Below, piece after piece: positions 18,534 through 60,695 of a DNA stretch of 64,000 bases; positions within the stretch are counted from its first letter, which is position 1; every line of letters starts with the position of its first letter. Where the stretch lies: positions 21,514,001 through 21,578,000 of the forward strand of contig CM074515.1 in assembly GCA_037379345.1 (NCBI GenBank), written 5' to 3'. Position numbers and translations under genes: made by a program. This DNA is from Perna viridis (taxonomy: Eukaryota). The notes beneath the pieces were generated by a model. The model was not told where the DNA came from, made no database searches, and saw only the letters and a program-made list of their open reading frames with translations.

Positions 18534-18710
18534 CCACAGTAATAGGCATGTAGATTCCTTTGTAAACTGTCCATGTATCATCATTCAGTTGCCAAGCCAC
18601 AGTAATGGGCTTGTTGATTCCTTCTGTCTGTCTGTGTATCATCATTCAGTTGCTCAGCTACAGTAATGAGCATTCTGCCTGTCTGTCTGTCTGTCTGTCA
18701 TCATTGAGGT
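18534..18710. repeat. ~62-bp degenerate tandem repeat x2.5 ending in (CTGT)n
   Basis: acagtaat.ggc..gattcc..tgtatcatcattcagttgc recurs. Confidence 0.75.
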
Positions 18711-19192: not shown

Positions 19193-19288
19193 TACATGTG
19201 CATTGTATATAGTAGAGTTTTGTCTACATGTGCATTGTATATAGTAGAGTTTTGTGTACATGTGCATTGTATCTAGTACAGTTTTGTC
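19193..19288. repeat. 32-bp tandem repeat x3
   Basis: tacatgtgcattgtatatagtagagttttgtc at 19193, 19225 and 19257. Confidence 0.95.
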
Positions 19289-19724
19289 GGTAAGTAAATG
19301 CATGATTTGATGTACTTCAACAACAAATATTGTTGTAACTCCTTAGTAAAAGCTATATTTTATTTGGTACATTTTCATTCACTAAAGGCAAAAAAAATAT
19401 AGGTAGGCTTGAGTTCTTGTTCATGACCACATATGTACCAAAGTATTGCATTTTTATTATCACCCTTTTTTTATTACAAAATATAAGCATTTTTTCAGTC
19501 TATCTGGTTTGATAAATGGGTCAATAGATGGATAAAAAACCATAGCAATTATTGGTATTTTAAGAACATACTAAGAGCAATTTACATACACATGATTTTT
19601 TTTCTTCAGAAAAATAAAATTATCTTCCCTCCTAATTGCAGGGTATCATTATCTCATGGACAGTTTCACCCTTTTCTTTTAATTTTTCCCTTGATTATCT
19701 TTCTCATGCAGACACCTCTTTCTT

Positions 19725-20193
19725 GGTACCAGTATCGCATTGCATATTACTGAGCAGGTTTATGTCAAAACATGGATGCTATAAAAATATAGTGCATTTT
19801 CTTTTTGCCCCTCTACAAACTAATGTTATGTCAAAAGATATGTACAATGACATATAAAATAGAGCAAACATCACACTATAAGATGACAAACTTTTTTAAA
19901 AGAAAATCTAACGTAATGACATAAAAATGTTCATCTGAAAAGGTTGGTTTGATGAGTGCAAAACAAAAGTGAAAGTAGAGAAAATGGCTATTTATAGTTC
20001 AAGACTACTTTTCTGTCCGATCTTTGTGGACTCACCCTATTTTCTTTGCGGGAAATTATTTTTTCACATGTCCTTAGAAATGCTGCATTAGTGAAAGTTT
20101 TATTGAATCAATTTACATATTTTTTTTTAAAAATCCTTAAAATATGCACTTCACTTTAGAAGTCTATGGGAAAATTAATATGATACTGAGACC
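19725..20193. mobile_element. Solo copy of the 468-bp TIR module (more diverged copy)
   Basis: Same sequence family and same GGTACC...GAGACC termini, with its own 4-bp TSD TCTT (19721-19724 and 20194-20197). Confidence 0.9.
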
Positions 20194-20322
20194 TCTTATC
20201 AGGATATCTCAGGATATACAAGGATTATATCCCCTGCCAGTAAATGGCTTGGTTAATTGTCTCATGGACATCCCCTTTCTTTAAATGCTTCCCTTGATTA
20301 TATACCCAGAAACCTCTCTCCT

Positions 20323-22511
20323 GGTACCAGTATCGTATTGCATATCCCTGAGCAGGTGTACGTCAAAACATGGATGCTATAAAAATATAGTGCATTTTCT
20401 TTTTGCCTCTCTACAAACTAATATTTTGTCAAAAGATATGAACAATGACTTATAAAATAGAGCAAACATCACACTGTAAGATGAAGAACTTTTTTAAAAG
20501 AAAATCTAACATAATATCATAAAAATGTTCCACTGAAAAGGTTGGTTTGATGAGTACAAAACGAAAGTGAAAGTAGGGAAAATGGCTATTTATAGTTCGA
20601 GACTACTTTTCTGTCCGATCTTCGTGGACTCACCCTATTTTCTTTGCGGGAAATTATTTTTTCACATGTCCTTAGAAATGCTTCATAAGTGAAAGTTTTA
20701 TTGAATCAATTTACATATTTTTTAAAAAATCCTAAAAATATGCACTTCACTATAGAAGTCTATGGGAAAATTAATACGATACTGAGACCTAGTAAGCCAG
20801 TTTTTCAAGTAAAGTTGGATATTCAGCAAGTGGTTTTTACCAGCTGAAAAAGTAGTACCCCAATGCAGGTAACACTTTTAAGATGAATTAGCCAACTTTT
20901 GAACCTGATTTTTTATGGTAGCTCTGGTTTTTTGCATTTATGGTTAATCTTTACCATATTTGGAAATGCATTTTGTTTTCATGAATTTGTATAATATCAG
21001 TTCAATAAAATTATTATCTTGACTGTTTATGATGAGCATATCTATATTCATGTAACCTAAAGCAAGTAATACTCCTGCATAAAGGATAGTTTTCAAGTTA
21101 CAACACATTTTAAGTATGTGGTTAGGACTTGAAAATAGTCATTTTCCATACATTGCCTCTTATATATGAAAAAATGAATATTTTTTTTATTTTTTGTTTT
21201 TCTTTCAAATAAATAGCTAAAATGAGTTGCCATATAACTGTGTGGTTGATTTAAACACAGAAATGGCACAAAAGTCAACAGCCAATTTTTTAGTGGACTT
21301 TTTTTAGTGGTTCAAATGGACAGATTCTAATGCGGCAAGAAAAATAAAGGTGTTTTTTCATATAAAAACTGATTTTTTTCAAAAAGTATCTAAAGCAGAC
21401 AGTTGTTATTATAATATTTATACCAATAAACTATTTTTCTTGCATCATAGCTATCTGTTTTAAAGAAAAAGTCCTTTTCCTGTCATATTGAGGTCCTTTT
21501 GTATCTGCCTGGGGTACCAAAATGGCTTAAAATCTGTATTTTCTGCATATGAAAAGCTATATTTTTTTAAAACTATGATATTGGTATAATTTTTTTTGGA
21601 TTTATTATAATTGAAATGACCATATCTATAGTTTAAAACAGTTGGTTGTACCAGTCATTATACTTTACTTTAAACAAGAGGCTCCCTTGAGTTAAAGACA
21701 AAAAAGGAGGTTCGAATATTAATATTTCCATATATGGAAATCACAAGTGGGGATTAAATAATGATTTGGAACTCATAGTACAGCTCATGTATCTACCATG
21801 TCAGAATAAACCACAAATTTGCTTAGCTTGACTAATGCAGCAGCTTTTTATCAAAAGTAATATTTTCTGGCTAACACTGAGATATTAGTCTCATGCCTGG
21901 AATAGGGTACCTGTATAAAAATTTTAATAGAAAACTCATGTTTATAGCAGGGCAATGATGTTCTGAATTTTCAGTATGAAAATGAATAATCTAGCAGAAA
22001 AACAACAACTTTTATGATTATATTTAAATGTTTATTAGTAATAGGTACCAGTATCGTATTGCATATCCCTGAGCAGGTGTACGTCAAAACATGGATGCTA
22101 TAAAAATATAGTGCATTTTCTTTTTGCCTCTCTACAAACTAATATTTTGTCAAAAGATATGAACAATGACTTATAAAATAGAGCAAACATCACACTGTAA
22201 GATGAAGAACTTTTTTTAAAAGAAAATCTAACATAATATCATAAAAATGTTCCACTGAAAAGGTTGGTTTGGTGAGTGCAAAACGAAAGTGAAAGTAGGG
22301 AAAATGGCTATTTATAGTTCGAGACTACTTGTCTGTCCGATCTTCGTGGACTCACCCTATTTTCTTTGCGGGAAATTATTTTTTCACATGTCCTTAGAAA
22401 TGCTACATAAGTGAAAGTTTTATTGAATCAATTTACATATTTTTTTAAAAATCCTAAAAATATGCACTTCACTATAGAAGTCTATGGGAAAATTAATATG
22501 ATACTGAGACC
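20323..22511. mobile_element. Non-autonomous composite DNA transposon: two ~468-bp terminal direct repeats (20323-20789, 22044-22511) flanking a 1254-bp non-coding internal region; KolobokP-like architecture
   Basis: The two repeats are nearly identical and in direct orientation. Each has 17-bp imperfect TIRs (GGTACCAGTATCGTATT...AATAYGATACTGAGACC). A 4-bp TSD TCCT is present only at the outer ends (20319-20322 and 22512-22515); the inner flanks (TAGT, AATA) do not match it. Confidence 0.85.
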
Positions 22512-25004
22512 TCCTATCAGGATATCTCTGGATACAAAGATTATCTCCCCTCCCAGTGGCTTAGGTCATTTTCTCATAGACATCCTTGTCTTTTGATGCC
22601 TACCTTGATTATTATTCCCAGACAGTTCTCTCCTATCAGGATATATCAGTTTGTACAAGATAGATCATTATAAAGGGAGATAAGTGTTATCAATGGACTT
22701 GTTTATTATGATAGATTCTTATTTTATTGTCAAAAAAGCTCAAAATCTGTGTGAAAACATTTCACTGTGTTAATTTAAGAAAGTGGATTGGAAACTTTAC
22801 AAACTTAACTGAATGTTAACTTTTTGCTCGTTACTTACTTTAAATACTTCAAAATTTGTGATATGTTGGTAAGAAATTGGTTTTTCTACAAAAACTGTCA
22901 TCACATCCTAAGTTTAAAAATTTTTTTCTGCATTATATGAATTACAGGCTAAATTTTAGGCATTACATCCTGGTAAAATCCAAAACACACCCCAAATGAC
23001 TGACTTAAGAAATTATTGTTTTCATTGTTTACCCTGAGATATGGGACACAAAACAAAGTGAGATGTGGACTTGCCCTCAGCTTTATTTTTAGAATCTCTG
23101 AAACTTTTTCAGATTAAAATATGTTAAAGAAATCTTTTTGGTCCAAAATAAAAATACAAAATGTAAGGCACACTTCTTCAACAGAAATAAAAAGCTTCAA
23201 GGAGTGCAGCATGGTACGACTGTAGTAATCAAGCTCTGAACAGTTGGGGACCCAATATTAGTTTTCGATTTTTTGGACTGTGGTCCTTCATAACTCAAAA
23301 AACACCAAGTAATATCTGAAATCAGATTGATAAACACAGGCAGGATATTTTCATTAGGAATCCAATTGAAAAAAGTTTTTGAAAGCAGACTTTTTAGTGT
23401 ATTCCCTTTGAACTTTAAAACAATCCATAAGGCATCAAATTTGATAATTTGTTTACCAGAATTAATATGGAACAAAATAAATAGAAAAACAAAAATCAAA
23501 AGAAAAATAAACATTCTACATGGGTTTCAATACAACACCTATTTTAACCCTTTTTGGCGCCTTATTCTAAAACGATGGGGGCCACAAACTCCAAATTATA
23601 TCGTAACCTGCCGATATTGGCAAGTAAAATCGTTTAAAAATTCGTAACAGTTTTGTCTACCACAACAAAAGCTATCACACAAAGACCAAGTGACTATTGA
23701 CTACAAGGAAACCAAGAGCACCATACCAATAAACAGCTGCAATTTTTTTGCAGTGGTATAAATATGTGTATTTAAAAGATTGCATTATCAACAAAAAAAG
23801 TTGAGAATAAGTTTTACTCTGTAAAAATGAATAGACACTACTGTGACATCACAATTTTCATGTGAAAATATTTTAATTTAATTGAAAATGAGGTAGACTC
23901 TTGGTAGTTTTAAAATGCACAATTAAGTTACCTCCACATGCAAGTATGAAAAAGAGACTTCACATGTATCTTTTAAACCTACAAAGAAGCAAATGTTCTG
24001 AAAAATTTCTCCTTGATAAAAGCATGTGGAGATATATAAATCTGCAACTTGCAGTACTGATTCAAATGTCTTTTAAAAAAAAATGTTTTAACTTCTAAAG
24101 AATTTCAATGTAAGAGTGCATGCTAGATTTTATGTCATAATAATCATATCATTGAATGTAAAATTGGATTAATTCCCAGGTATAAAAGTGGGTGTACTTG
24201 AAATTACATCTTCATTTTTCAGATTTAATTTTTGTTCTTCTTCACATTTTAAGGCTTATATCACTTAGCTTGAGTTACTGCAAATTTTGAAATAATCAAT
24301 TTTGGATTTTTATATGAGTGTACAGAGAATTTATCTTGATATGGTAAAAATTGAAATGGCATTTTGGTGAAAATTAACAAACTAGCGATGATTTTCTCAT
24401 TTACAGTAAGTAACAAATTTTCTGCTGTTATATATTTTACATGGAGAGGTTGTGAAACCATTAAATTTTTTATACTCCAACCCAGTTATGTTTTATGATT
24501 ACACCCTCTCCCCACAAAGTTCAGGGAGTGTGTATGATCAATCACCCTGTCTGTCTGTCTGTACATCTATTTGTCCATGACTCTCATAAGTACAACTCCG
24601 CCAGCACTCCACAGTTTAGTTTAGTTTCACACTTTTGGCCAGGGATAAAAAATGACATAAATGGAAACCGGTGGTTGTTATAGTGATTAAAAATGAAGAA
24701 TTTATTGTTGATAAAACATTTTCTGAAAAAGGGGACTTTTAAAAGTATTTTGCAATGTTTTATATATTTTCAATGTTGAAGGGGCTTTTTTTCAATGACA
24801 GTTTGACTTCATTGTGAAAGTGAAAATAAGTCAATTTTTTACCATGTTAAATTTAATAAGTGGATTACAGAGTGAAATAGCTCAAAATCTAACCCGCGAT
24901 GCCCATATGAGGAAGGGGTTTTCGAAGGAAAAAGTTTCAGGGGATGAAATAAAAATTTAAGATATTTTGTGGATAATCTGATATTTTTAAACCTGATTTT
25001 ATTC

Positions 25005-25277
25005 GGCATTCCAATGGGAACAAATTGTGCTCCTTTACTTGCTGACCTATTCCTTCACTCTTATGAGGCTGACTTCATAGCTGATCTGATCAGAAAGAAA
25101 GATGACGTATTATCTTTAAACAATCCTAATTTTGGGTATTCGATACATCGCATCTACCCAAAAGAACTTGAGATAAAGGATACTATGGACACTGTGAAGT
25201 CAGCCTCATATCTTGACCTACACTTAGAAATCAATGGTAAAGGAAAACTATTGACCAAACTTTATGACAAACGTGAT
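25005..25277 (+). mobile_element. Penelope-like retroelement reverse transcriptase fragment (internally deleted)
   Basis: GIPMGTNCAPLLADLFLHSYEADF...DDVLSLNN...IYPKELEIKDT...SASYLDL...TKLYDKRD is a typical PLE RT core. The residues just before the catalytic DD are missing (RKK|DDVLS), and both ends are truncated. Confidence 0.85.
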
Positions 25278-26576
25278 TTACAGATGCGTGACAATTTTTT
25301 AAAGTGATAAATGTTACAAAGCATCAGATTACTAGACCAAAATTAGGCAGTTCTGCAATACTGTGGAGTGCTGGCTTAAAGGGAGCTGCCAATACCCCTA
25401 CACATTTAAAAAATTGCTTTGCATCTTAGAAACTAGTGTTTTTATGCTATGCTTTGATACAAGGGTTAAAAAAATGTAACTTATGGTATGGACCTATATT
25501 GTTGTTAGCTAAGAAGTCCCTAGCAACCAATTATGCTGATTTTTTGCAAAGTTAACAGAACAGTCATTGAACTGATTCATGTGTGAATATGACTCTTGCC
25601 ACCATAAAGAATGGAATATATTTTTAAAGGCTAAATATTTGTGCTGGTTACATGTAAAATAGTTGACCGGGCAACTTTTAAGTGCACAATAAGCAAAGGT
25701 TTAATAACCTAAGACCTAGAGTAGGCTTTTTAGTATTTAGTTTTCAACTCATTCAGATTTCTCCTTTTTCATGCGATGAGCTTCAAATGCACTATTTTAG
25801 CGTAAAACCTCTGTTAAAAGCTTACAAAACCCTAAATTTAGGGTTTATAAGTACATATGGGTTATCATTTTGTATGTTTTAAGTGGCAATTTTCATTTAA
25901 AAGATGATTATAGCAAAACAAGTGAAATTCATATCTGCACTTAGGTATAAGCAAAGTTCTCCACTAATGAAGAGGAGATAGCCTAATATAAGAATGCCTC
26001 TAAAATTGTTATCAATTGTCCATTTATGATAAATTTGGTATCATTTTACTCGTAAGAAGGTAAGCTTTCAAGAAATAACTAGAAAATTACAATATTTAAT
26101 ATTGCATTCTGCTTAATCCTGCTAAATCACTCAATGGATCCTGATGAAAGTTAAGAGATAGGTTATGAATCATTTGTAGATGGGCAGGTAGGAATTTAAT
26201 TTTTGTTGGATCCTGCAAAGGAAAATAATTCAAATCTAAATTTTAACATCTCCTGTTAAATCATCTCCTTAGGAAAATCATTAATGATACATGCCTGCAA
26301 AGGGAGATAATCAAGGTTTTTTTTTACATTTTAGTATCTAAAAAGGTCAACTCCTCCTATACCGCTGAATGGATTTTGGTGAAGCCTTAAATGAAATTTG
26401 TGCATTATATGTAGAAGTGCATGAAATAAGGTAATTTCTGTTTGATGCCTAAAAAAGGAATATACTCAGATATAAGGTTTACTGGGTATATATTCAAAGT
26501 TCAAGTGAAATGGAGGATCAGTGCAGGATCCAGAAATTCTGAAAAGAGGGGGACTGGCTCCAGTTATTTCCATATA

Positions 26577-27864: not shown

Positions 27865-28410
27865 CTACATAATAATTCTATCTTGTAACAGAAAATTTCA
27901 GTGTATATAGGAGGACACCAGGGGCTTCTTTCCCCACAATACCCTGTGACCAATTAGGCTTCCACAGTCAGATAGGGCTACATGTTAATTGTAATTTGTG
28001 AATTTCAGTGTATGCTGGTTGATGTCATGGGCTTCCTTTTCTTAAGAATCCTTGCGACTAATGAGGCCTGTACAGTCAGATAGGGTTACATGACAATTAT
28101 AAGTTGTAAATTTCAGTATATGCTGGAGGATATCTGGGGCTTCCGTTTCCCTAAAATCCTTGTAACCAATGAGGCCTGTACAGTCAAATCTATTTATCTC
28201 TAGTGAGAGTTAAGGCTCAAAAGATCATAAAAGGATACATAATAGTGTTAGTTGTATATTTCAGTGTATGCAGAAAGACATCAGAGACTTCCATCAACCA
28301 TGAATCTTTGCTACCAACGAGGTCCCCTCTCCAGGAATCAGTCTACACTGTCAGACTTGACTACATAACAATTGTGTGTTTTATATTTCAGTGCATGCAG
28401 GAAGATGTCA
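27865..28410 (+). repeat. Degenerate tandem array (5 units, 107-148 bp) whose last unit is the real acceptor and 5' end of the exon at 28392
   Basis: The motif tacat...atttcAG|TRYAT....ga recurs with AG ending at 27901, 28008, 28116, 28264 and 28391. The first four units also share cttc...aat(g/t)aggc...acagtca-like downstream sequence. Confidence 0.85.
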
Positions 28411-28521
28411 GACTGAGTGATCCTGACAGTACAGTGAAGGTACATGCTGATAAACCTCACCTCGTCAGTCTGGGTAGTGGTCGGTTGTCAACAGCAGTCA
28501 CTATTATACCTCTACAAAATG
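28392..28521 (+). CDS. PHLDB1: Coding exon of a pleckstrin homology-like domain family B (PHLDB1/LL5-like) gene; start of FHA domain (CMQEDVRLSDPDSTVKVHADKPHLVSLGSGRLSTAVTIIPLQN-G)
   Basis: Acceptor tttcAG ends at 28391 and donor G|gtaaaa starts at 28522 (phase 0 in, phase 1 out; 130 nt). The peptide KPHLVSLGSGRLSTAVTIIPL matches the PHLDB1 N-terminal motif as I recall it (KPHLVSLGSGRLSTAITLLPL). Orthology to PHLDB1 versus the family ancestor is not resolved. Confidence 0.92.
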
Positions 28522-30374
28522 GTAAAATCATCGGTCATATAGTATAGATACTAATAGTTACCGAGTACTCAAGGATAAATCTCATCCCACCCACCTTGCA
28601 CCAAACATTTTGAAAGTTTTTTTGAATACATGTAATTTTTCATATAATTTTCTTTTCAAAACTTACCAATTGGATTTTTTCTCATTTTGAGCTTTTTTTA
28701 TATTGTTGTTATGATCACTTTACTACTTCTTCATAGAACCTGTTCTAAGGTTGACCTTCCATAATTACGATTTGGCCTGATTTATTGCCAGAAAAATTAA
28801 TAAAGTATTAAATTAATAGAAGATAGCATCAGCAGATGTATGGATTATATTTTTGGCAACTGCAGACCTTCAGGATAAAAAATCTATAAAAAGGCGTGAG
28901 GATAAATTTAGTAAAAAAAACTCCCATTGCTTCCAATGCAAACCCATATTTTAAGTGATGTCCTTTGTGAATAAACCTTTAGAAATCAAGCACTTTTATG
29001 TATCACTTTTTTAGGTTCGTAAGCCAAGTTATCTTTTGCAACTTTCAAAACATAGGGTAATGCGGCATTTTTTGGTCATTTCCATGTCTTTTTTGCATAC
29101 AATGTGAAAATGTGCTAAATTTTGATCCTAGTCCCACCACTGTTTAAAGTGCTGTGAAAAAAAATTAGAACAGCAAAATGAAGAACTGGCATATTCTGAA
29201 GTGCAAAAATGAAAGATCTTTCAAATTATATTAAATTGGAAAAATATTATTTAATCCCATGGCCACTGGCCTGCTCTTCATGATAGATTGTTTTCCCCAA
29301 AAGGGGTAGGTCTTGTGAAGGTCATGAATATTTACTATATTTATACCTTGAGAGAGTATCTGCGTCTATTTACAGAAGAATGTTTTAAACAGTAAAATTA
29401 GAGGAATGATAGTTATAAGGCTGTATAAAAACTAATCAAACTTTGAGAGTCAGTACTTGTAAATGTTGAAAATATGGCATAACTAATAACATTTTATACC
29501 CCTACTCTATGAGCGGGTGGTATATCGGAATCATGTCTGTAAGTCTGTCTTCTACTGGACTGATTGATTTCAAATTTGGTGTATGGCTTTATATGAAAGA
29601 CATTCTTTTATAACATGGATGAGAAAAGTTGCGCAGTGTATGTAAACAAACCATTTCTTCACAGTGAAGGCAGTAGTTGATAGTCCATTCTTATATATTG
29701 CCACCATACTTATTTCAAACACTTAGAATGAAATCGTTTTAATCTGAGCAGCAATACTACTATTCAACCTATAAGTGTCAAAATTTTGCTATGAAAGCAA
29801 ACACAATAATAATGAATTTCAAAATTTTTTTAAGCCTTAGTCTCCTGCCTGTTGCTAAGGCACTATCTGTAACCTCTGCTATTAATCTTTCTGTCAAGTA
29901 ATGGAAATACTATGAAAGTACTTGAATTGGTGGATACCAATTTTTATGGATTAGGAAAGGAACACAAGTTCATGGATTATTGAATTTAAGGTTTGAGGTT
30001 TTTAGTTTACACATCAGTAGAAATCTCCATTTCATTGGGAACATTATTTTGTGGTTTAGTCTACCCATAAAAACCACAAAAATTGGTACCTCACAATAAA
30101 TAGTATTTTCACTGTATACTGTATATGTAATTTGATTGCTGTGTATCAATTTTCTTGGTTTGTTGAAATTTTGAATTTTGGTAGAACTTCTTATAAAACA
30201 TAAACATCTCAGTTTTATGGGAAGTTGAATTGTGGTTTGACATGAGACATTGCTTTGAATAAATGACTTTGTTGCCATCATCTTTGGTCACAATATATCT
30301 TTTCTAAAAGATATACAGCTATTATTGACTTATATGAGTACTAAGACTCATTTGGTTAGATGTTACCACTTGTT

Positions 30375-30607: not shown

Positions 30608-30790
30608 GGAGAACAGACATAGGGACAGTAGATGCTGAGATATTACCAGATGTCATTATTCAGGGTACAGGTGTTGAGGATGAACACTGTTACATAGACA
30701 ACATCCATGGAATTGTCACGTTCTATCCAGTGGCTAAGATGTGCTTTATTGACCAGAGATTGGTTACTGAGCCTACTAGGCTAACACAGG
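30608..30790 (+). CDS. PHLDB1: Coding exon of PHLDB1-like gene; FHA core (GRTDIGTVDAEILPDVIIQGTGVEDEHCYIDNIHGIVTFYPVAKMCFIDQRLVTEPTRLTQG)
   Basis: Polypyrimidine tract plus cctcAG ends at 30607, donor CAGG|gttggt at 30791; 183 nt, phase 1-1, in frame with both neighbouring exons. GRT.IG, EHCYI.N and PTRLTQG are PHLDB1/kinesin-3-type FHA motifs. Confidence 0.93.
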
Positions 30791-31460
30791 GTTGGTACAT
30801 ACAATATTCACTATAAATACATGAATTCATACATGCCCTAGTCAACTTCTGATATTATGGGCTATTTGGTCGTTTTTCCTATGATATTTCTTTTAGGTAT
30901 TATTCATTTGCACGAAGACGAAGTGATACTTGAAAATATCTGTTAATGGTGGAATGATGTGACACAATCTAGGAAAGAACCATTAGTGGAATTTCACACT
31001 TTACTTCATGTTGAGGATATGAGTGTTTTTGAAACATCAGTTAAAGATTTGAGGTCACTTGGTGCAAATCATGATTGAGCATGACAAATCTTTGTATACA
31101 ATACAGTTAGCTCTATTCTTATGCATCTGTCAAATATATCTGATAATTGCAGTTAAATTTCTCAAAAATTATATCTCAAAATGTGTAAAATAATTACAGC
31201 AGTCAATTGTGGAAGTGATACCTTGAATTTTCATCCAATGAAATTTTACATCCTAATGAATTTTGAAGGTGAATTGGAATATTGATTTTTCAAATTCATA
31301 AAAAATTTCAATTGAATTCGGAACTATCAATAGAATTACTTGTACAGGAAAATATGTGTTTTTTAATAAACTGAATCATTGGCATTGAATATTTCAGGGA
31401 TGATTGTTATGTTTTTTTATTGGTCTACTTTTATTACCCTGGCAACTGGCAAAAACTTAA

Positions 31461-31733: not shown

Positions 31734-33189
31734 TTCTGTTAAATTCTGCCACAGTATACAAAATCATTAAGTATAATTTGGACGAACGTATGTATAAGAA
31801 ACGTGTGATACAGAACAGTATACAAGTACAACACCACAATTTGTATGTTTTGGAGGAAATTTTAAATGATTAGAAACAACCGAGAATTTTATTTCTTCTA
31901 GAGAAAAAAAAAACAATACTAGACTATAAAATTTCAAAGACTTGATCCAAAGTTGACTTATTCCCCTTTTCACAGAACATGTTAAATGAATTGATGAGAA
32001 CTGTTTATTGTTTTTGTATTGGAAAACAGTCCTTCACAAATTCTGCATTCCTGTTGTATTATATCATTTATTTGTATAGGATCTGAGAAAAAAACCTTAT
32101 CATGGTATTTCTAAAATCAAAGGTGAAGTCATTTACAAAAGATAGGTGAACAAGTACTTCTCTTCTTATCTTGTAGTCTTTTGTTTGTTAATGTGTCAAA
32201 GGGAAATCAAACATGCCTTTTACTTTAATGGATTAAAAACGATATGAAAATGACACAATAAATAGAAATTGACATGCACAGTAATCCATTTCAACCATGC
32301 CTTATCTCCAGACATTTATTTTTGTTTGCCAAAATATATTTTATCGAATGAATTCTAAATATCTTTTTTTATACTTTATGATGTAATATATCTTTTCACA
32401 AACTATCATTTTCCAATGTAAACATTGTAAAAACTGTGCATTGTGTACCTGCCAGGTATATATCATCTTTATCATTAGTGTGGAATGTACCGATTAAACA
32501 GCTGTACTTATGATAAATCTACGATAGAGCTACGTACGTTATGCAACCGAATGACGTAATCTGTAGACTTTCTTCATAAATGTTATCATTGATGTATCTT
32601 GTCTTGACAAACTCTTCTCTCATGTTGTTCTTATAAGCATTAAACCATCGATTGGAAAAAATTAAATTTAATTGGAAAGGATTTGGGATGTTTAGACTTC
32701 ATTTTTGCCCTTTTCAGATAGTTAACTTTACATTTATAGGTAAAAATTTTTCAACAGGAAAGTCACTATGTTTGAAAAAAAGATTTTTTTCAAGTTCATA
32801 ATTCCAACACAATGCTTTTTTTTTTACATATTGTATGCCATTGTTACAAATATATTGAATGGGGTATGCATGGAAGAGAAGTAGTTGTCGTAGGTCTAAA
32901 ACAGGAAAATTTTTTGAACAAAATAGATAATGAAGCAACTTTTTTGTACAGTACTAGTATGTAGAAATTTTACAGACAGATATAAAGACGATAGCATTGA
33001 AAAATTGCAGTATTCCACATGTAAAAATAATTTCTATTTTTATTATCTAATAAACTTCGTTTAAACGTTAATAAAATATTTAAGTACTCCATGCTAGTAA
33101 TTTTCCAAATTACACCGCAACTGATCCATATATGCCTTAAATACTAATAAATACACTAATACTATGTAGGTTCCATCAGGCACAGTGAC

Positions 33190-33791
33190 CAATTTACGAT
33201 AAAAACCACAGGCATGACACTGGTCGGTAGGTTTTGCCCTGAATCTCTGGGCAACAAAGTGTTGCCCACTCCCGGGAAGGGGCTGGTTATTAGCAGGAAC
33301 ATTAACAGCATTCGTAGGAACTTGTCGTCCTCGGAATCACTGGCGTTGTCATCCGAATGATATTCTTGGACCGTCTTCCAGCCACCTTCACTTTTGTCCA
33401 CAATACGGATCAACTTGTTTCTCTTTTTTATCAACGAGAGGGATTCTTCAAGAATTGACTCTGCTTTCGACAAGCGCTTTTTGTCAATATAACGTAAGGC
33501 CCACTCAATATTATCCAGCAGATCAGAGTTAAATTCAAATTGAATTTGGTGTCCCTTAAAGTTAAAGTTATTTTCAACTTTATTGACTTTCTTAGCAAGT
33601 GAGCTAGTAGTTTCTTGGAAGTTACTTTCTATACAGGCAAATTTAGAGTTCATATATGTTTTCATTATAGATAACAAGTCCGCATTGGTCACCGATTCAA
33701 GGTTTGCAAAAACAGAAGCGTTTACTGTATTATCTTGAGTAACCTCAAGCTCATCTCTAATGTAGAGTTTCAACTTCTCTGAGTCGGACAT
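33190..33791 (-). mobile_element. Truncated gag-like ORF1 of a DIRS/Ngaro-type (tyrosine recombinase) retrotransposon
   Basis: Motifs F.FKGHQIQFEFN and KKRNKLIRIVDKSEGGWKTVQEYHSDDNASDSEDDK are ones I recall from invertebrate DIRS/Ngaro ORF1. After a frameshift near 33320, another minus frame reads RFRAKPTDQCHACGFY, the start of a zinc knuckle (33205-33219). No RT or recombinase follows. Confidence 0.65.
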
Positions 33792-33899
33792 TATACAACC
33801 TTAACTTCAGTAATGGCTTCTTGTTACAACGTATACCTACACAGAACTTGGTCACCAGCCTACTTGATACATTTAAAATCATGCGCACTGCTTTTATAC

Positions 33900-42800: not shown

Positions 42801-43654
42801 AAAAAATGTTTTAAAAATACAAGCATATTTAATTCTTTTTTTTTTTCAGATCAGTTTGTGTTCATAAAATATTTTTGCTATCAACCCTTTCAACAACTGT
42901 TTGAGTCATTTTACAGGTCTTATCAAATGTAGGTACAAGAACACAATTAATTCCCCTTGGTTTTCGTTGTATACGAATATAGTTCCAACTTTGGTAGTAG
43001 GTACCTTCCACATTTATTCATATTTTTACTGGAAACTTATTTGCTGAAGTTTTGCCTCTAATTGGTAGAAAATAGGTTAAATTTTACATGGGATTTTTTT
43101 TCATTAATCAATTCTGACTAAAAGTTGTGATTTGGTTCAGTGGAAGAAGGTTAAAATTTAGGACTTTTAACTCAGTTCATTTGTCATGTTTACCCCATCT
43201 CCAAATTAGATGTATTAATTTCAGAAAATGATGGTAAAATTTTCTACAATTTATATATAAAATCCTGTTTGTACATATCTTTAAGCCAGAGAAGTTTAAT
43301 TCAGTTTGCGCGGGTGGAATTTTTTTAATCTGCTCAAATGTGTATATTGAAATGCACTTGAAAATAAATTACGGTCTCGTGCCTGTAAGCAAATTATTTA
43401 GATACTGGTAAGGTCAAGGTCATTGTCCTATGACCCTATGCTTATGGTTTGAATGTACATATAATCAGAACATTTAGATATGTACATAAGATCTAGACAT
43501 TGCATGTATGGTCCAAATGCCTGTTTGATCGAAACCTATATATTGGAGTACTGTTGCCCTTGCTTGAATTGCCATATTAAATATTTTTTTGCTTCTGTTT
43601 TGAACGCATGAACAAATTTTCTTACTATCGGTTGAGCATTTTTTTGATATTATG

Positions 43655-44040
43655 CATATGTATGGTTTATTTTCTCATTTTGTACCATGCTTACATATGG
43701 TTAGATGTTTTCCCATTTTGATACCATGCTTACGCATGGTTTAATGTTTTCCTTTTTGATACCATGCTTACGTATGGTTAAATGTTTTCATTTTAATATC
43801 ATGCTTACGTATGGTTAAATGTTTTCCTGTTTTGATACCATGCTTACGTATGGTTTAATGTTTTCATTTTTGATACCATGCTTACGTATGGTTAAATGTT
43901 TTCCTGTTTTGATACCATGCTTACGTATGGTTTAATGTTTCCTTTTTGATACAATGCTTACATATGGTTAATTTTTTTCCCTGTTTTTATACCATGCTTA
44001 CATATGTTTTAATGCCTTCCTATTTTATTACCATTCTTGC
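43655..44040. repeat. ~38-bp minisatellite, about 10 copies, with a palindromic core
   Basis: tttgataccatgcttacgtatggttWaatgttttc repeated; the core is ACCATGC-TTAC-GYATGGT. Confidence 0.95.
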
Positions 44041-49894: not shown

Positions 49895-51485
49895 GTGAGT
49901 TCTCCTAACTATATCTTTTTTCTCTTGTTTTCATGTGCTTGTGATGACTTTAATCTGTATAATTGGTTAAAACCTTTTTTTCTTATGATGCAAATTCTGA
50001 TGTTTTCCTCACTTGAGGAATTTAATTAAAAAAAAATTAATTGACCTAAATTGGTAAAAATGATATATAATACAAATTGTCATATTTGAAAGGGATCCAG
50101 GAAATTTTGTACTCCCTGAAGTCAACCAAAACACGAATCCTTAAGTGTCAGTCCCTGTAAATATCAGGCAGTAGGTACGAAAAATACCCATCATTTTGAT
50201 AGTGTAATTTGACTATTTGCACCATCAGAATCAAGGAAAACAGACAAGATTTTCCATATCATGCTGGACCATTGAGTTACAATTTCATTGAAATGCACTG
50301 AAAATGAACATTTCAAGGGCAGATAACTCTGTCAAAAACCTCATTTTTCTAAGATTCTATTGAAAAATTTCTGAGCAAAGCCAGTGATGCAGAGATCAAA
50401 TAATGGTCTTTTCAGAAGGAGAAAGTATCCTTGAGTAATATTACATTGTCAGATTGGTGGGTTTTTGACATGATGTTTCTGATTTTCCCCATTTGCCTGA
50501 TTCTTACAAATACTTACACTTAAAGGGCATACAATTCTCACATGGTGCAAACTTTATTTTTATCTTTTATCAAAAAATGGTGTATTGTGTGTGGTGAATA
50601 TGAAATGACTTTGTCATTAGTGGAATTGTATACCATAATTTTATTCACTTTCTTGAGTCCTAATATTTGCAGTATCAGTAAAATGGCTATATTGCGGCTA
50701 CTGTTTTTCATTGTTAAGATGGCATGTTTTATTAAAGGATGAGAAATAAATTTTGCATTTTGTATTTTTCACACTACAAACTTTAAACATAGTATAAAAT
50801 ATGTGTATTACAAAAAGTACTATTTTTTAGTATTTTACAGGGAAACAATATATATTGTGACTAGAAAGTAATGAACATTTATAAAAATCAAAATCCTAAA
50901 TAGACATTTCTATTCCAGATTAGTAAATAGAGCATTGCGTTTCAGGTCATTATTTTTTCTGAGTTACAAATTTAGGAAAGATTGGTGAACAAACCAAAAT
51001 ATTGCATTGTAAATCTCAAAACTTGTTTAGGTAAAATACCTTTTTATCGTCCAAACTACTGGTGTGCTTTCATTGTTATTAATCCAAAATATTTTTGTGA
51101 CACTTGTTTCTATCAATGGCTGGTTACTATCAAATATAAGAACCACTATACTCATATTTTATAGTAACTGGCCATTGATAGAAACAAGTGCTACATGGGC
51201 CAACCTAATAATGACTTTCTTATTGTATTGCATTGATGTGCATAGTTTTAATTTGATCAGAGTTAAGGTCAGTCAAAAGTCAAAAGCTTTATTTAAAGTC
51301 AGTACTCTTAAAACAAAAACCAAAGATCAACTTCTGTTATTGTATGCTTGTTTTTGTATTTAACTACATGTTTCCATCCATCTTAATGTTTCAAAGGCAC
51401 ACTTCCCTGAAAATAATTTGAGTTATCTTCCTTTACACAAAGCGCATTGTTTCTACTAGAGTTGTCTCCCTTGGTTTATTGATAA

Positions 51486-51953
51486 GGTACCAGTATCGTA
51501 TTGCATATCCCTGAGCGGGTGTACGTCAAAACATGGATGCCATAAAAATATAGTGCATTTTCTTTTTGCCTCTCTACAAACTAATGTTTTGTCAAAAGAC
51601 ATGAACAATGACTTAAAAAATAGAGCAAACATCACACTGTAAGATGAAGAACTTTTTTAAAAGAAAATCTAACATAATATCATAAAAATGTTCCACTGAA
51701 AAGGTTGGTTTGGTGAGTGCAAAACGAAAGTGAAAGTAGGGAAAATGGCTATTTATAGTTCAAGACTACTTTTCTGTCCAATCTTCGTGGACTCACCCTA
51801 TTTTCTTTGCGGGAAATTATTTTTTCACATGTCCTTAGAAATGCTACATAAGTGAAAGTTTTATTGAATCAATTTACATATTTTTTTTAAAAATCCTAAA
51901 AATATGCACTTCACTATAGAAGTCTATGGGAAAATTAATACGATACTGAGACC
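51486..51953. mobile_element. Solo copy of the 468-bp TIR module
   Basis: Near-identical to 22044-22511, with its own 4-bp TSD ATAA (51482-51485 and 51954-51957). Confidence 0.92.
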
Positions 51954-53047
51954 ATAACTGTTACCTAGATCAATTTGCTACCTTTTAACAAGTAATCCAA
52001 GACAAATATTTGGTACATTTGTATTACCATTACTTATCAGCCATCACTAAATTGTAAATAAACAACCTGCTAATCCCTTGGTAGATCAGTGGTCATTTAA
52101 AAACCAATCAAGCAAAAATTATTAGATCGGGTCCTGATAGGATATTGGGGAAGAGAAAGTCATTTCACCCTGCTGATTAATTTTAAATATGTGAGGGGTT
52201 GTTGGAGGGTCAGGAAGGGAGGGGATATTTCCATTTACAGAAGTCATTTTAGAGTATCTTATATGACCTATATATTGTTTATCACATTTTAGCTCCACAA
52301 AATACAACTTAATTTCCATATTTCCTTTTGATTCTTTCAAAGCCCAGTTAACAAGTTTTCTTGAAGCTTGAAGGAGTGAACTGTAAAAAGATGGTAACAA
52401 TAGGTCTTTTGAAAATTATATGCTGCAGAAGGTAGAGATATTAGTGCATATTTATCTTAAGATCTTAATTTAAAAGGTCATAGAATGTAGTTCAGAATAA
52501 ATTGAAGTGAATGATGCTGTTTATAATTTGAGAAGTTGTACTTCCGTAGGTTTGCAGAGTTAATGGGCAAGCTGTTTCCAATCAAGAATCTTGAAGACCT
52601 TAATTGTTTGCAAAGAAATGCATCTTTTTTTTAATTTCATGCAGCTTGCTCAGTCAGAAAAATTGTAATTAAAAAGGGGAGGTTAATTGAAATAATACTT
52701 GAATTAGCTGTTAATCTGTGATGTTACTACGATGAGTTTGAGTGTCTGGTAGAGAGAGAGGGTCTGTAAAAGAGGTTAATTATATATTAATTATAGGGAG
52801 ATCAAACTTAAACAGACTTTCTCTTCTTGTTTATGTAACATAAATATAATGGCTTCCTAAAGAACAAGTAGAGCTGTGATGTATAACAGATTATTTTAAT
52901 GTGTCAGAAGCTGGAATTAAGGTTGTTTGAATCCAATACATCATAATCTGCAGTGGCAAAAAAGTTTTTGTTTTCTCTAATACTCTGATTTGGCCTTGCC
53001 TGGAAAATTTGATGGCTTGGTTTGGCCTGAACAATTTTTTCTCTTCA

Positions 53048-59400: not shown

Positions 59401-60408
59401 TAAAATGAAAATTCTCCTTTTTAATTCAGGTAGGAGAAAATGATTTGAGCTGAAGACTTTAAGTAGAAGCAGATCTAAAATGACCATGACCATAAAGTTC
59501 TTCCTGATTTAGCCTAATCTTGTAAAACTCCCTTAAGGTACCTCTTTGTATTGCCTATGGAAAAGAGGATTTCTAAAATATGATCCCTATGTCAATGGAG
59601 TAGCAGACCCATAAATTTCCATCTCATTTAAAAGGTTAAATCGGGACAAGACTAGGATCATTTTTATGAAGTTGAGCATGAGAACCATTGACTTCAGGCA
59701 AAGAGAAGTAAATGATCAATTACTGGAAAGCTCATCCTTCAGTCCAATGAACAAAGGCCAACTTATCTTGTCCACTTCTCTGTCATAGCTTTCAATAATG
59801 ATCAAACCATTTTTGTCTAGTTTGCTCCTGGCTCTTGTCAGTGTGAAATATTCTTTGAAAAGAAATTGAATGAAATTGGATTGAAAGGTATCATTTAGGT
59901 ATTCATTTTGTACAAATAGGCTGAGTGGTGACTTTAACAGTAGCTCTTTTATTGAAAATTCAATCTTGGGGGTTATGTGTAGTTATAGGAAATGTGAGAA
60001 AAACTCATGTTTAGATTAATGTTTTAATAAGGGCATGTGGAATGTTGCTTATCCTTTGAGGTGTTGCAAATCTGAAATTGAAAACTTTTTAAAGATCAAA
60101 AGTCAAGATTTAGAAATAACATTTTAGCTTCTGATCTGATTTCATCCCTTTGGGAGGTAGGTATTTTGATTATTGCTGAGGACAAGTTTTTTTTAATTGT
60201 GACAATAGGTGTTAAATATCATCTGTTTTCTTTCTGTGTATGGTATGGCTGGTATGTTAATAACTTTGTGCATTTGTACGGCCATTTTAGTTAGGTTTTG
60301 AATTGAACTTAATTTGTTTGCCTTTGTACTTACATTTGCCATGCTCCACTCAGTGAAAATTACAACTTGATACTAAGAATTTTTTGGCTACTTTTGACTT
60401 GTGTTAAA

Positions 60409-60695
60409 TGTGCTCTGCCCTTTTCAGCTGGGTTAAACCAGCTTACATTTGCCCTGCTCCAATCAGAGGAAACATGCTCTGTCCTTTTCTGCTGGGCTGA
60501 ATAAGCATACATTTGCCTTGCTCCAGTCAATGGAAATATGCTCTGTCCTTTTCAGCTGGGTTAAATAAGCTAACATTTGCCCTGCTCCAGTCAGAGGAAA
60601 CATGCTCTGCCCTTTTCAGCTGGGCTGAATCAGCTTACATTTGCCCTGTTCCAATCAGAGGATATATGCTTTGACCTTTTTGGCTTACATTTGCT
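60409..60695. repeat. 64-bp minisatellite (about 4.5 copies) with alternating unit types
   Basis: acatttgcc recurs at 60445, 60509, 60573 and 60637; units alternate gggttaaa / gggctgaa. Confidence 0.9.

Follow-up and report, generated by a model that had tools for sequence, protein, structure and literature searches.

Probable KolobokP-type transposon copies of different age, likely inserted separately at the same position of a host tandem repeat in Perna viridis

Organization of the locus

A 64,000-nucleotide stretch of the Perna viridis genome (assembly GCA_037379345.1, contig CM074515.1, positions 21,514,001 to 21,578,000; hereafter the window, whose own numbering is used throughout) contains four copies of a module of ~468 bp, all in a single orientation. 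Two copies (M2 and M3) flank an interior (INT) that is present once in the window, and the other two (M1 and M4) are solo. The modules are probably the long terminal direct repeats (LTDRs) of a gene-less DNA transposon of the KolobokP type. Target-site duplications (TSDs) of 4 bp enclose each insertion: TCTT round M1, TCCT round M2-INT-M3 and ATAA round M4. An initial annotation, drawn from the letters of the window, reported that three adjacent units of a host tandem repeat carry a solo module, a full composite and no element at the same nucleotide; coordinates and letters bear this out, and the three sites are in register. The features are as follows.

19606..19724, no strand: partial host repeat unit 1 (~119 bp), with the left TSD of site 1 (TCTT, 19721-19724) at its end; delimited by Tandem Repeats Finder on the in-silico empty locus
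19725..20193, minus strand (orientation as in published KolobokP LTDRs): M1, solo LTDR, 469 bp, the older copy
20194..20322, no strand: right TSD of site 1 (TCTT, 20194-20197), followed by host unit 2 (125 bp) and then the left TSD of site 2 (TCCT, 20319-20322)
20323..20789, minus strand: M2, LTDR of the composite, 467 bp, terminal inverted repeat matched at 14/16 positions, GG..CC ends
20790..22043, no strand: INT, 1254 bp, non-autonomous, very high depth in public runs
22044..22511, minus strand: M3, second LTDR of the composite, 468 bp
22512..22634, no strand: right TSD of site 2 (TCCT, 22512-22515), followed by host unit 3 (119 bp) with empty site 3 at its end
22631-22634, no strand: empty site 3, a single TCCT
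22635..22649, no strand: stub of a fourth host unit
51486..51953, minus strand: M4, solo LTDR of the same family as M1-M3, 468 bp, TSD ATAA, unrelated target

M1 and M2 recur at a period of 598 bp, corresponding to one module plus one host unit. Multimers of the form (LTDR-INT)n-LTDR are absent from the 64-kb window.

The host repeat was delimited after in-silico deletion of the elements together with one TSD each. On this emptied locus Tandem Repeats Finder returned a period of 119 bp, with 2.3 copies and 79% matches under default weights and 3.0 copies and 73% matches under relaxed weights, in agreement with the ~120-bp unit of the initial annotation, though the array is short and degenerate and unit 1 is without the first ~25 bases of the unit. 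The three sites are spaced by 125 and 119 bp. The motif TCYTATCAG (Y, C or T) occurs four times in 64 kb: at the three array sites and, unoccupied, at 52142 on the minus strand. The best-preserved part of the unit is the ~30 bases round the site; of 20 alignment columns round the site, 15 are identical in all three units, versus 6-13/20 upstream. Read depth was taken from four of 21 public runs (X1, X16, X2 and X4; four samples from three studies, of which one may be the assembly source). In these runs the host unit stands at single-copy depth at 85% likeness where readable (bin 22575-22721). Further short, decayed tandem arrays lie at 18534-18705 (period 61), 19193-19288 (period 32), 27893-28186 (period 108), 43641-44038 (periods 39, 77 and 114) and 60406-60680 (periods 64 and 128). 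Small arrays of the host-unit kind are thus a common feature of the window.

Two probable insertions of different age

The host units have diverged further than the modules they carry. Stretches upstream of the sites differ at 22/98 positions (sites 1 and 2), 21/96 (1 and 3) and 18/100 (2 and 3); over their full length, units 2 and 3 differ at 19/118. Each comparison also includes 3-4 internal gaps, giving an overall divergence of 16-22% plus indels. M1 differs from M2 at 29/467 aligned bases, from M3 at 28/467 and from M4 at 31/468 (~6%), and M2, M3 and M4 differ among themselves at 6, 11 and 9 of 467 (M2 and M3 at 6/467). Compared with module divergence (29/467), the host-unit divergence is significantly greater (Fisher p 5e-6 to 1e-3). 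Thus, the host units had diverged long before an element entered either site.

M1 is several times older than the composite. The initial annotation had described the solo copy as more diverged than the other three, and the counts agree with it (28-31 differences versus 6-11 among M2-M4). The excess lies in M1 itself, which carries 23 private substitutions as compared with two in M2, one in M3 and five in M4; relative-rate tests against M4 gave 24 versus 4 and 25 versus 3 (p<2e-4). No quarter of M2 or M3 resembles M1. The two TSD pairs, as also reported in the initial annotation, differ concordantly, with TCTT on both sides of M1 and TCCT on both sides of the composite; at the rate of M1, a concordant change on both sides has a chance of ~0.004. 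Because host-unit divergence exceeds module divergence, M1 has a private excess and the TSDs differ concordantly, sites 1 and 2 likely received two separate insertions of different age, as the initial annotation had proposed, and simple duplication of a single insertion is rejected.

Identity of the element

All four modules start with GG and end with CC, measure 467-469 bp and contain a 16-bp imperfect terminal inverted repeat (TIR; 14/16 matched in M2). The composite totals 2189 bp, INT starts and ends with TA, and the 4-bp TSD is variable in sequence in 3/3 insertions. INT has no stop-to-stop frame, and no coding remnant, longer than 72 amino acids, and neither a transposase nor a His-Me nuclease is found in the element.

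KolobokP transposons are described as having LTDRs of ~450 or ~660 bp, perfect or imperfect TIRs of 11-18 bp, RR..YY ends (R, A or G), TSDs of 3-5 bp and frequent solo LTDRs (Kojima and Bao 2022, PMC9587614); the short LTDR class in the published Table S1 spans about 430 to 480 bp. The locus shares its LTDR-INT-LTDR structure and its solo copies with the non-autonomous members of the ~450-bp class, such as KolobokP-4N1_CorFlu and KolobokP-N5_CGi (PMC9587614). Its GG..CC ends, 16-bp TIR, variable 4-bp TSD with A/T edges and TA-bounded INT are likewise shared with the published KolobokP elements, and 2189 bp falls inside the published length range of non-autonomous copies (PMC9587614). By eye, minus-strand module bases 20-41 are identical to bases 20-41 of KolobokP-2_HaRuf-LTDR (22 nt), and a motif near the far end of the LTDR is common to the LTDRs of the oyster elements KolobokP-8_CGi and KolobokP-N5_CGi. 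Exact-word look-ups against part of the published LTDR list gave only these short motifs or chance matches in interior sequences; none of the LTDRs compared belongs to this family, and a closer relative may exist. Scans of metagenome, genome and viral contigs with the module-end pattern gave no matches; a second module-end pattern gave four, all of them chance matches of 19-24 nt in GC-richer DNA.

A long terminal repeat (LTR) retrotransposon or terminal-repeat retrotransposon in miniature (TRIM) would also show solo, full and empty states, terminal direct repeats and a short TSD (a definition partly from PMC9587614). However, the present element has GG..CC ends and TIRs rather than TG..CA termini, lacks a coding remnant and has LTDR motifs that match KolobokP.

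In the four runs the depth of INT is ~2,900-8,400x the summed flank depth, a ratio that gives an order of magnitude only and is not a copy number. The family is probably very abundant, with thousands of copies. As it stands, the locus contributes to the record a highly abundant non-autonomous family of the KolobokP type and a clear case of same-site reuse. In runs X16 and X1, contigs at single-copy depth fuse the end of the LTDR plus a few bases to the start of an LTDR, without INT (joint 20794->22043). This joint may represent two LTDRs arranged head to tail at another place in the genome, comparable to the abutted TIRs that have been proposed for a circular intermediate; its shorter side has just 24-25 letters, and it is possibly false.

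Outer junctions in public runs

Single-copy contigs from the left flank enter M1 by 31, 85, 23 and 23 bases in X1, X16, X2 and X4, respectively, and those from the right flank begin within M3, at 26, 12, 27 and 12 bases from its end. Module letters are thus present at both outer junctions in 4/4 runs, with no break at the junction itself; under a 31-letter bridging rule the left junction is bridged in 2/4 runs and the right in 0/4. Such entry lengths would be about the limit for a unique contig running into a high-copy repeat. Among 15 of 158 joints viewed in the four runs, none is a joint of an empty allele, the inner junctions round unit 2 lying outside that sample. Left and right contig depths are 96/90 in X16, 69/70 in X1, 7.7/8.6 in X2 and 9.4/5.2 in X4, a run of low depth. 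In X16 and X4 the right-flank contig begins exactly at 22500, which would fit two alleles at the CpG position 22499 in the end of M3.

Target-site choice

Loose-end consensuses from the four runs served as a catalogue of flanks, with rows of different runs sharing loci. Of 1,589 loose-end rows, 24 were sampled; 18 of these lie at module ends, and each summarizes 20-41 contigs as a consensus. All 18 have an agreement of 0.39-0.44; in simulations, random 30-mers of the window gave 0.39-0.42, and 30-mers whose first four bases were W-edged or all W (A or T) gave 0.41-0.44. Neither ATCAGG nor AGG at +4..+6 was seen in any of 11 right-flank consensus rows. In simulation, sites of the ATCAGG type would be visible in 98% of rows if they made up 50% of the total, in 68% at 30%, in 28% at 20% and in 4% at 10%; the sample therefore excludes a major share of host-motif sites but not a minor one. 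The TSDs read from the row offsets are ATAA, TTTA and TATA on the right and TAAT, TTAT, TTAA and TAAA on the left, and the only apparent preference of the family is for A or T at the two outer positions of the TSD. M4, with TSD ATAA and unrelated flanks, has a different target, as reported in the initial annotation for the copy at 51486.

Sequence- or structure-directed targeting as a property of the family, which had been put forward in the initial annotation, is not supported: the flank consensuses are random-like, and random DNA folds at least as well as the empty sites. A hairpin or cruciform at the site was rejected at -1.9 to -2.6 kcal/mol, as compared with -3.3 +/- 1.9 for random 64-mers. 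A TIR-like host sequence as attractor was also rejected, the best match of 9-10/16 being reached by 17-64% of background windows, as was an RNA gene as target, the host target having no Rfam match at E<=0.1. The initial annotation had further held that random flanks together with module divergence equal to host-unit divergence would indicate duplication of one insertion. Random-like flanks were found in 18/18 sampled consensuses, but the equality was not (6% versus 16-22%).

These observations agree with the published account of KolobokP, whose authors find no strong target preference and state that the nuclease seemingly does not set the integration site (PMC9587614). TSD edges in the published junction lists are, by eye, mostly A/T, and the flanks varied (PMC9587614). 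Three solo entries of KolobokP-1_MeMe in Figure S3 have near-identical 10-nt flanks, which may reflect site reuse or duplicated loci (PMC9587614). Dada transposons, which target tRNA, rRNA or small nuclear RNA (snRNA) genes (PMC13565253), resemble the present case in that one position is used again and again across the copies of a host repeat. Dada specificity, however, is described as family-wide and directed at a functional multicopy RNA gene, whereas here the flanks are random-like, the target of M4 is unrelated and the host sequence is a decayed three-unit repeat without an Rfam match. A literature search in which subscription journals were thinly covered found no direct precedent for a DNA transposon that reuses one and the same base within a tandem repeat and no description of it for KolobokP; the portion of the main text of PMC9587614 that was covered does not describe an in-register double insertion in a host tandem repeat, and multiple insertions into satellite DNA are mentioned in general terms in PMC5139131.

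The motif CCCTTGRTTW is found in the left flank of M4 (51460-51485) and also 25-35 bases upstream of sites 1 and 2; its distance to the insertion differs between M4 and sites 1 and 2, and it occurs six times in the window.

Most probable history of the locus

As a whole, the locus is probably best explained by two insertions of a KolobokP-type element, an older one that is now solo and a younger one that is full, into two copies of a likely favourable site that the host repeat had duplicated beforehand. The DDD/E transposase of an autonomous partner would act in trans on the 16-bp TIRs, with a 4-base staggered strand transfer at each insertion. One copy would have entered site 1 long ago, as a solo LTDR from the start or reduced to one later, and a full copy would have entered site 2 much more recently. 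Site choice would combine a short preference for A/T edges with a local feature copied by the host repeat, DNA shape and chromatin being candidates. As the site region is the best-kept part of the unit, a favourable site would be present three times; site 3 would most simply never have been used. We observe the anatomy, the ages and the random-like flanks directly, and infer the enzyme, the hotspot and the cause of the hotspot.

Several points weigh against this explanation. Neither TCTT nor TCCT is of the commonest TSD type among the sampled consensuses, and pattern scans found no relative or autonomous partner, so that the transposase is deduced. The arrangement is also rare by chance. Assuming a genome of 1.2 Gb, 10,000 insertions and a two-fold preference, 0.003-0.008 in-register pairs are expected per genome, and a 100-fold hotspot or 30,000 insertions would be needed to come near 0.1-1. 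In a wider model that assumes 1.2 Gb, 3,000-30,000 insertions and 3-10% in decayed tandem repeats, same-orientation in-register pairs are expected at 0.0002-0.075 per genome with a two-fold preference and at 0.01-3.8 with a hundred-fold one. The explanation therefore calls either for a local site preference or for a rare coincidence brought up by the breadth of the scan (look-elsewhere effect). Chance alone, with about 0.003-0.01 such pairs per genome under the assumed inputs, is hard to credit, so that the likeliest cause is probably a site of local preference that the host repeat had multiplied, and not true targeting.

Alternative explanations

The same improbability of chance would be met if a minority of insertions were directed by sequence, which we regard as unlikely. 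A semi-palindrome, CCT-N3-[4-bp centre]-N3-AGG, would be read by the transposase or cut by a His-Me finger homing-type nuclease, the element being captured there; two matching sites would have been filled at different times and the mismatched site 3 left empty. The CCT/AGG symmetry at -6..-4 and +4..+6 is indeed present in sites 1 and 2 and not in empty site 3, and the motif CCT-N10-AGG occurs six times in the window as assembled. However, the pattern was chosen post hoc from two related sites, and some 3-base symmetry is found at 11% of positions. Site 2 matches 7/11 flank bases of the I-PpoI site (PMC3597653) in the same register of the 4-bp centre, a score reached at 0.6% of window positions, but occupied site 1 and empty site 3 score equally (6/11 each), and M4 scores 1/11; neither this match nor the CCT/AGG symmetry is seen in the family consensus. 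The near-identical flanks of the three KolobokP-1_MeMe solos would fit directed insertion and equally, perhaps, duplicated loci (PMC9587614). The lack of ATCAGG, and of AGG at +4..+6, in 11/11 right-flank rows speaks against a 30% share of such sites, which would show in ~68% of rows, but a 10% share would show in only 4%; the view of the KolobokP authors that the nuclease seemingly does not set the integration site is also contrary to it (PMC9587614). A little less probable still is that unequal crossover near the site duplicated the old solo and that a young full element then overwrote the second copy by ectopic repair or gene conversion, a solo-to-full conversion of the kind proposed for KolobokP (PMC9587614). 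Over the 30 bases to their right, M1 and M3 have flanks that are distinguished by no more than 2/28 positions plus one gap, and two bases just upstream of the site are common to units 1 and 2 but not to unit 3. Nevertheless, the upstream flanks of units 1 and 2 differ at 22/98 positions plus gaps, so that the crossover would have to fall within ~17 bases of the element, and the informative columns nearest the element are in the wrong order, unit 2 matching unit 3. Within nine junction bases, M1 would also have to have changed three times, twice in parallel (~0.004). The 19/118 differences between units 2 and 3 would suit such a history, as they exceed an expected 10-11% only marginally (p 0.025-0.058). 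One base near the outer end of M3 is shared with M1, but this base lies in a CpG, and a polymorphism there would fit the contig break seen in two runs; both repeats of the composite would have to be replaced completely, no M1-like quarter remaining in M2 or M3.

Two further explanations are very improbable. Solo and full haplotypes may have been joined in tandem by the assembler: no contig in the sample spans the locus, and the inner junctions round unit 2 are not among the sampled pieces. Both outer-junction contigs nevertheless have similar single-copy depth within a run (X4 being at low depth), and the units are 16-22% apart with indels. Divergence of 16-22% with indels exceeds what is expected between alleles. 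Least credible of all is the other history considered in the initial annotation, in which one composite insertion was duplicated with its host unit, reduced to a solo by module recombination in unit 1 and precisely excised from unit 3. The common orientation and register and the M1-M2 period of 598 bp would follow from it directly, but the host units are 3-4 times more diverged than the modules, the age of M1 is unlike that of M2 and M3 (relative-rate p<2e-4) and the TSDs differ concordantly. Site 3 is moreover clean, whereas KolobokP excision is reported seldom to leave the flanks unchanged (PMC9587614).

Two insertions at a pre-duplicated site would have practical consequences. Same-site reuse is a caution for the use of such insertions as homoplasy-free markers, and against reading in-register copies as duplications. 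A hidden site preference, if true, would offer the first clue to the sequence cut by the KolobokP homing-type nuclease; according to a 2026 review, the proposed role of this nuclease awaits experimental confirmation (PMC13565253).

Neighbouring features

On the plus strand, 30622-30795 and about 28440-28530 are likely exons of a host gene whose product has an FHA-like domain (Pfam FHA E=0.068, below the cut-off); the atlas matches under 0.9 are all FHA, and the insertion locus is ~6 kb upstream. The product may resemble the N-terminus of PHLDB/LL5 proteins. Open frames at 33162-33800 (minus strand) and 24948-25307 (plus strand) have no Pfam match above the cut-off; they look like a remnant of a DIRS/Ngaro-type ORF1 and a reverse-transcriptase fragment, respectively. 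Direct-repeat pairs of ~200 bp are located at 38254-38455/39691-39892 (86% identical) and 53127-53327/53455-53662 (80%).

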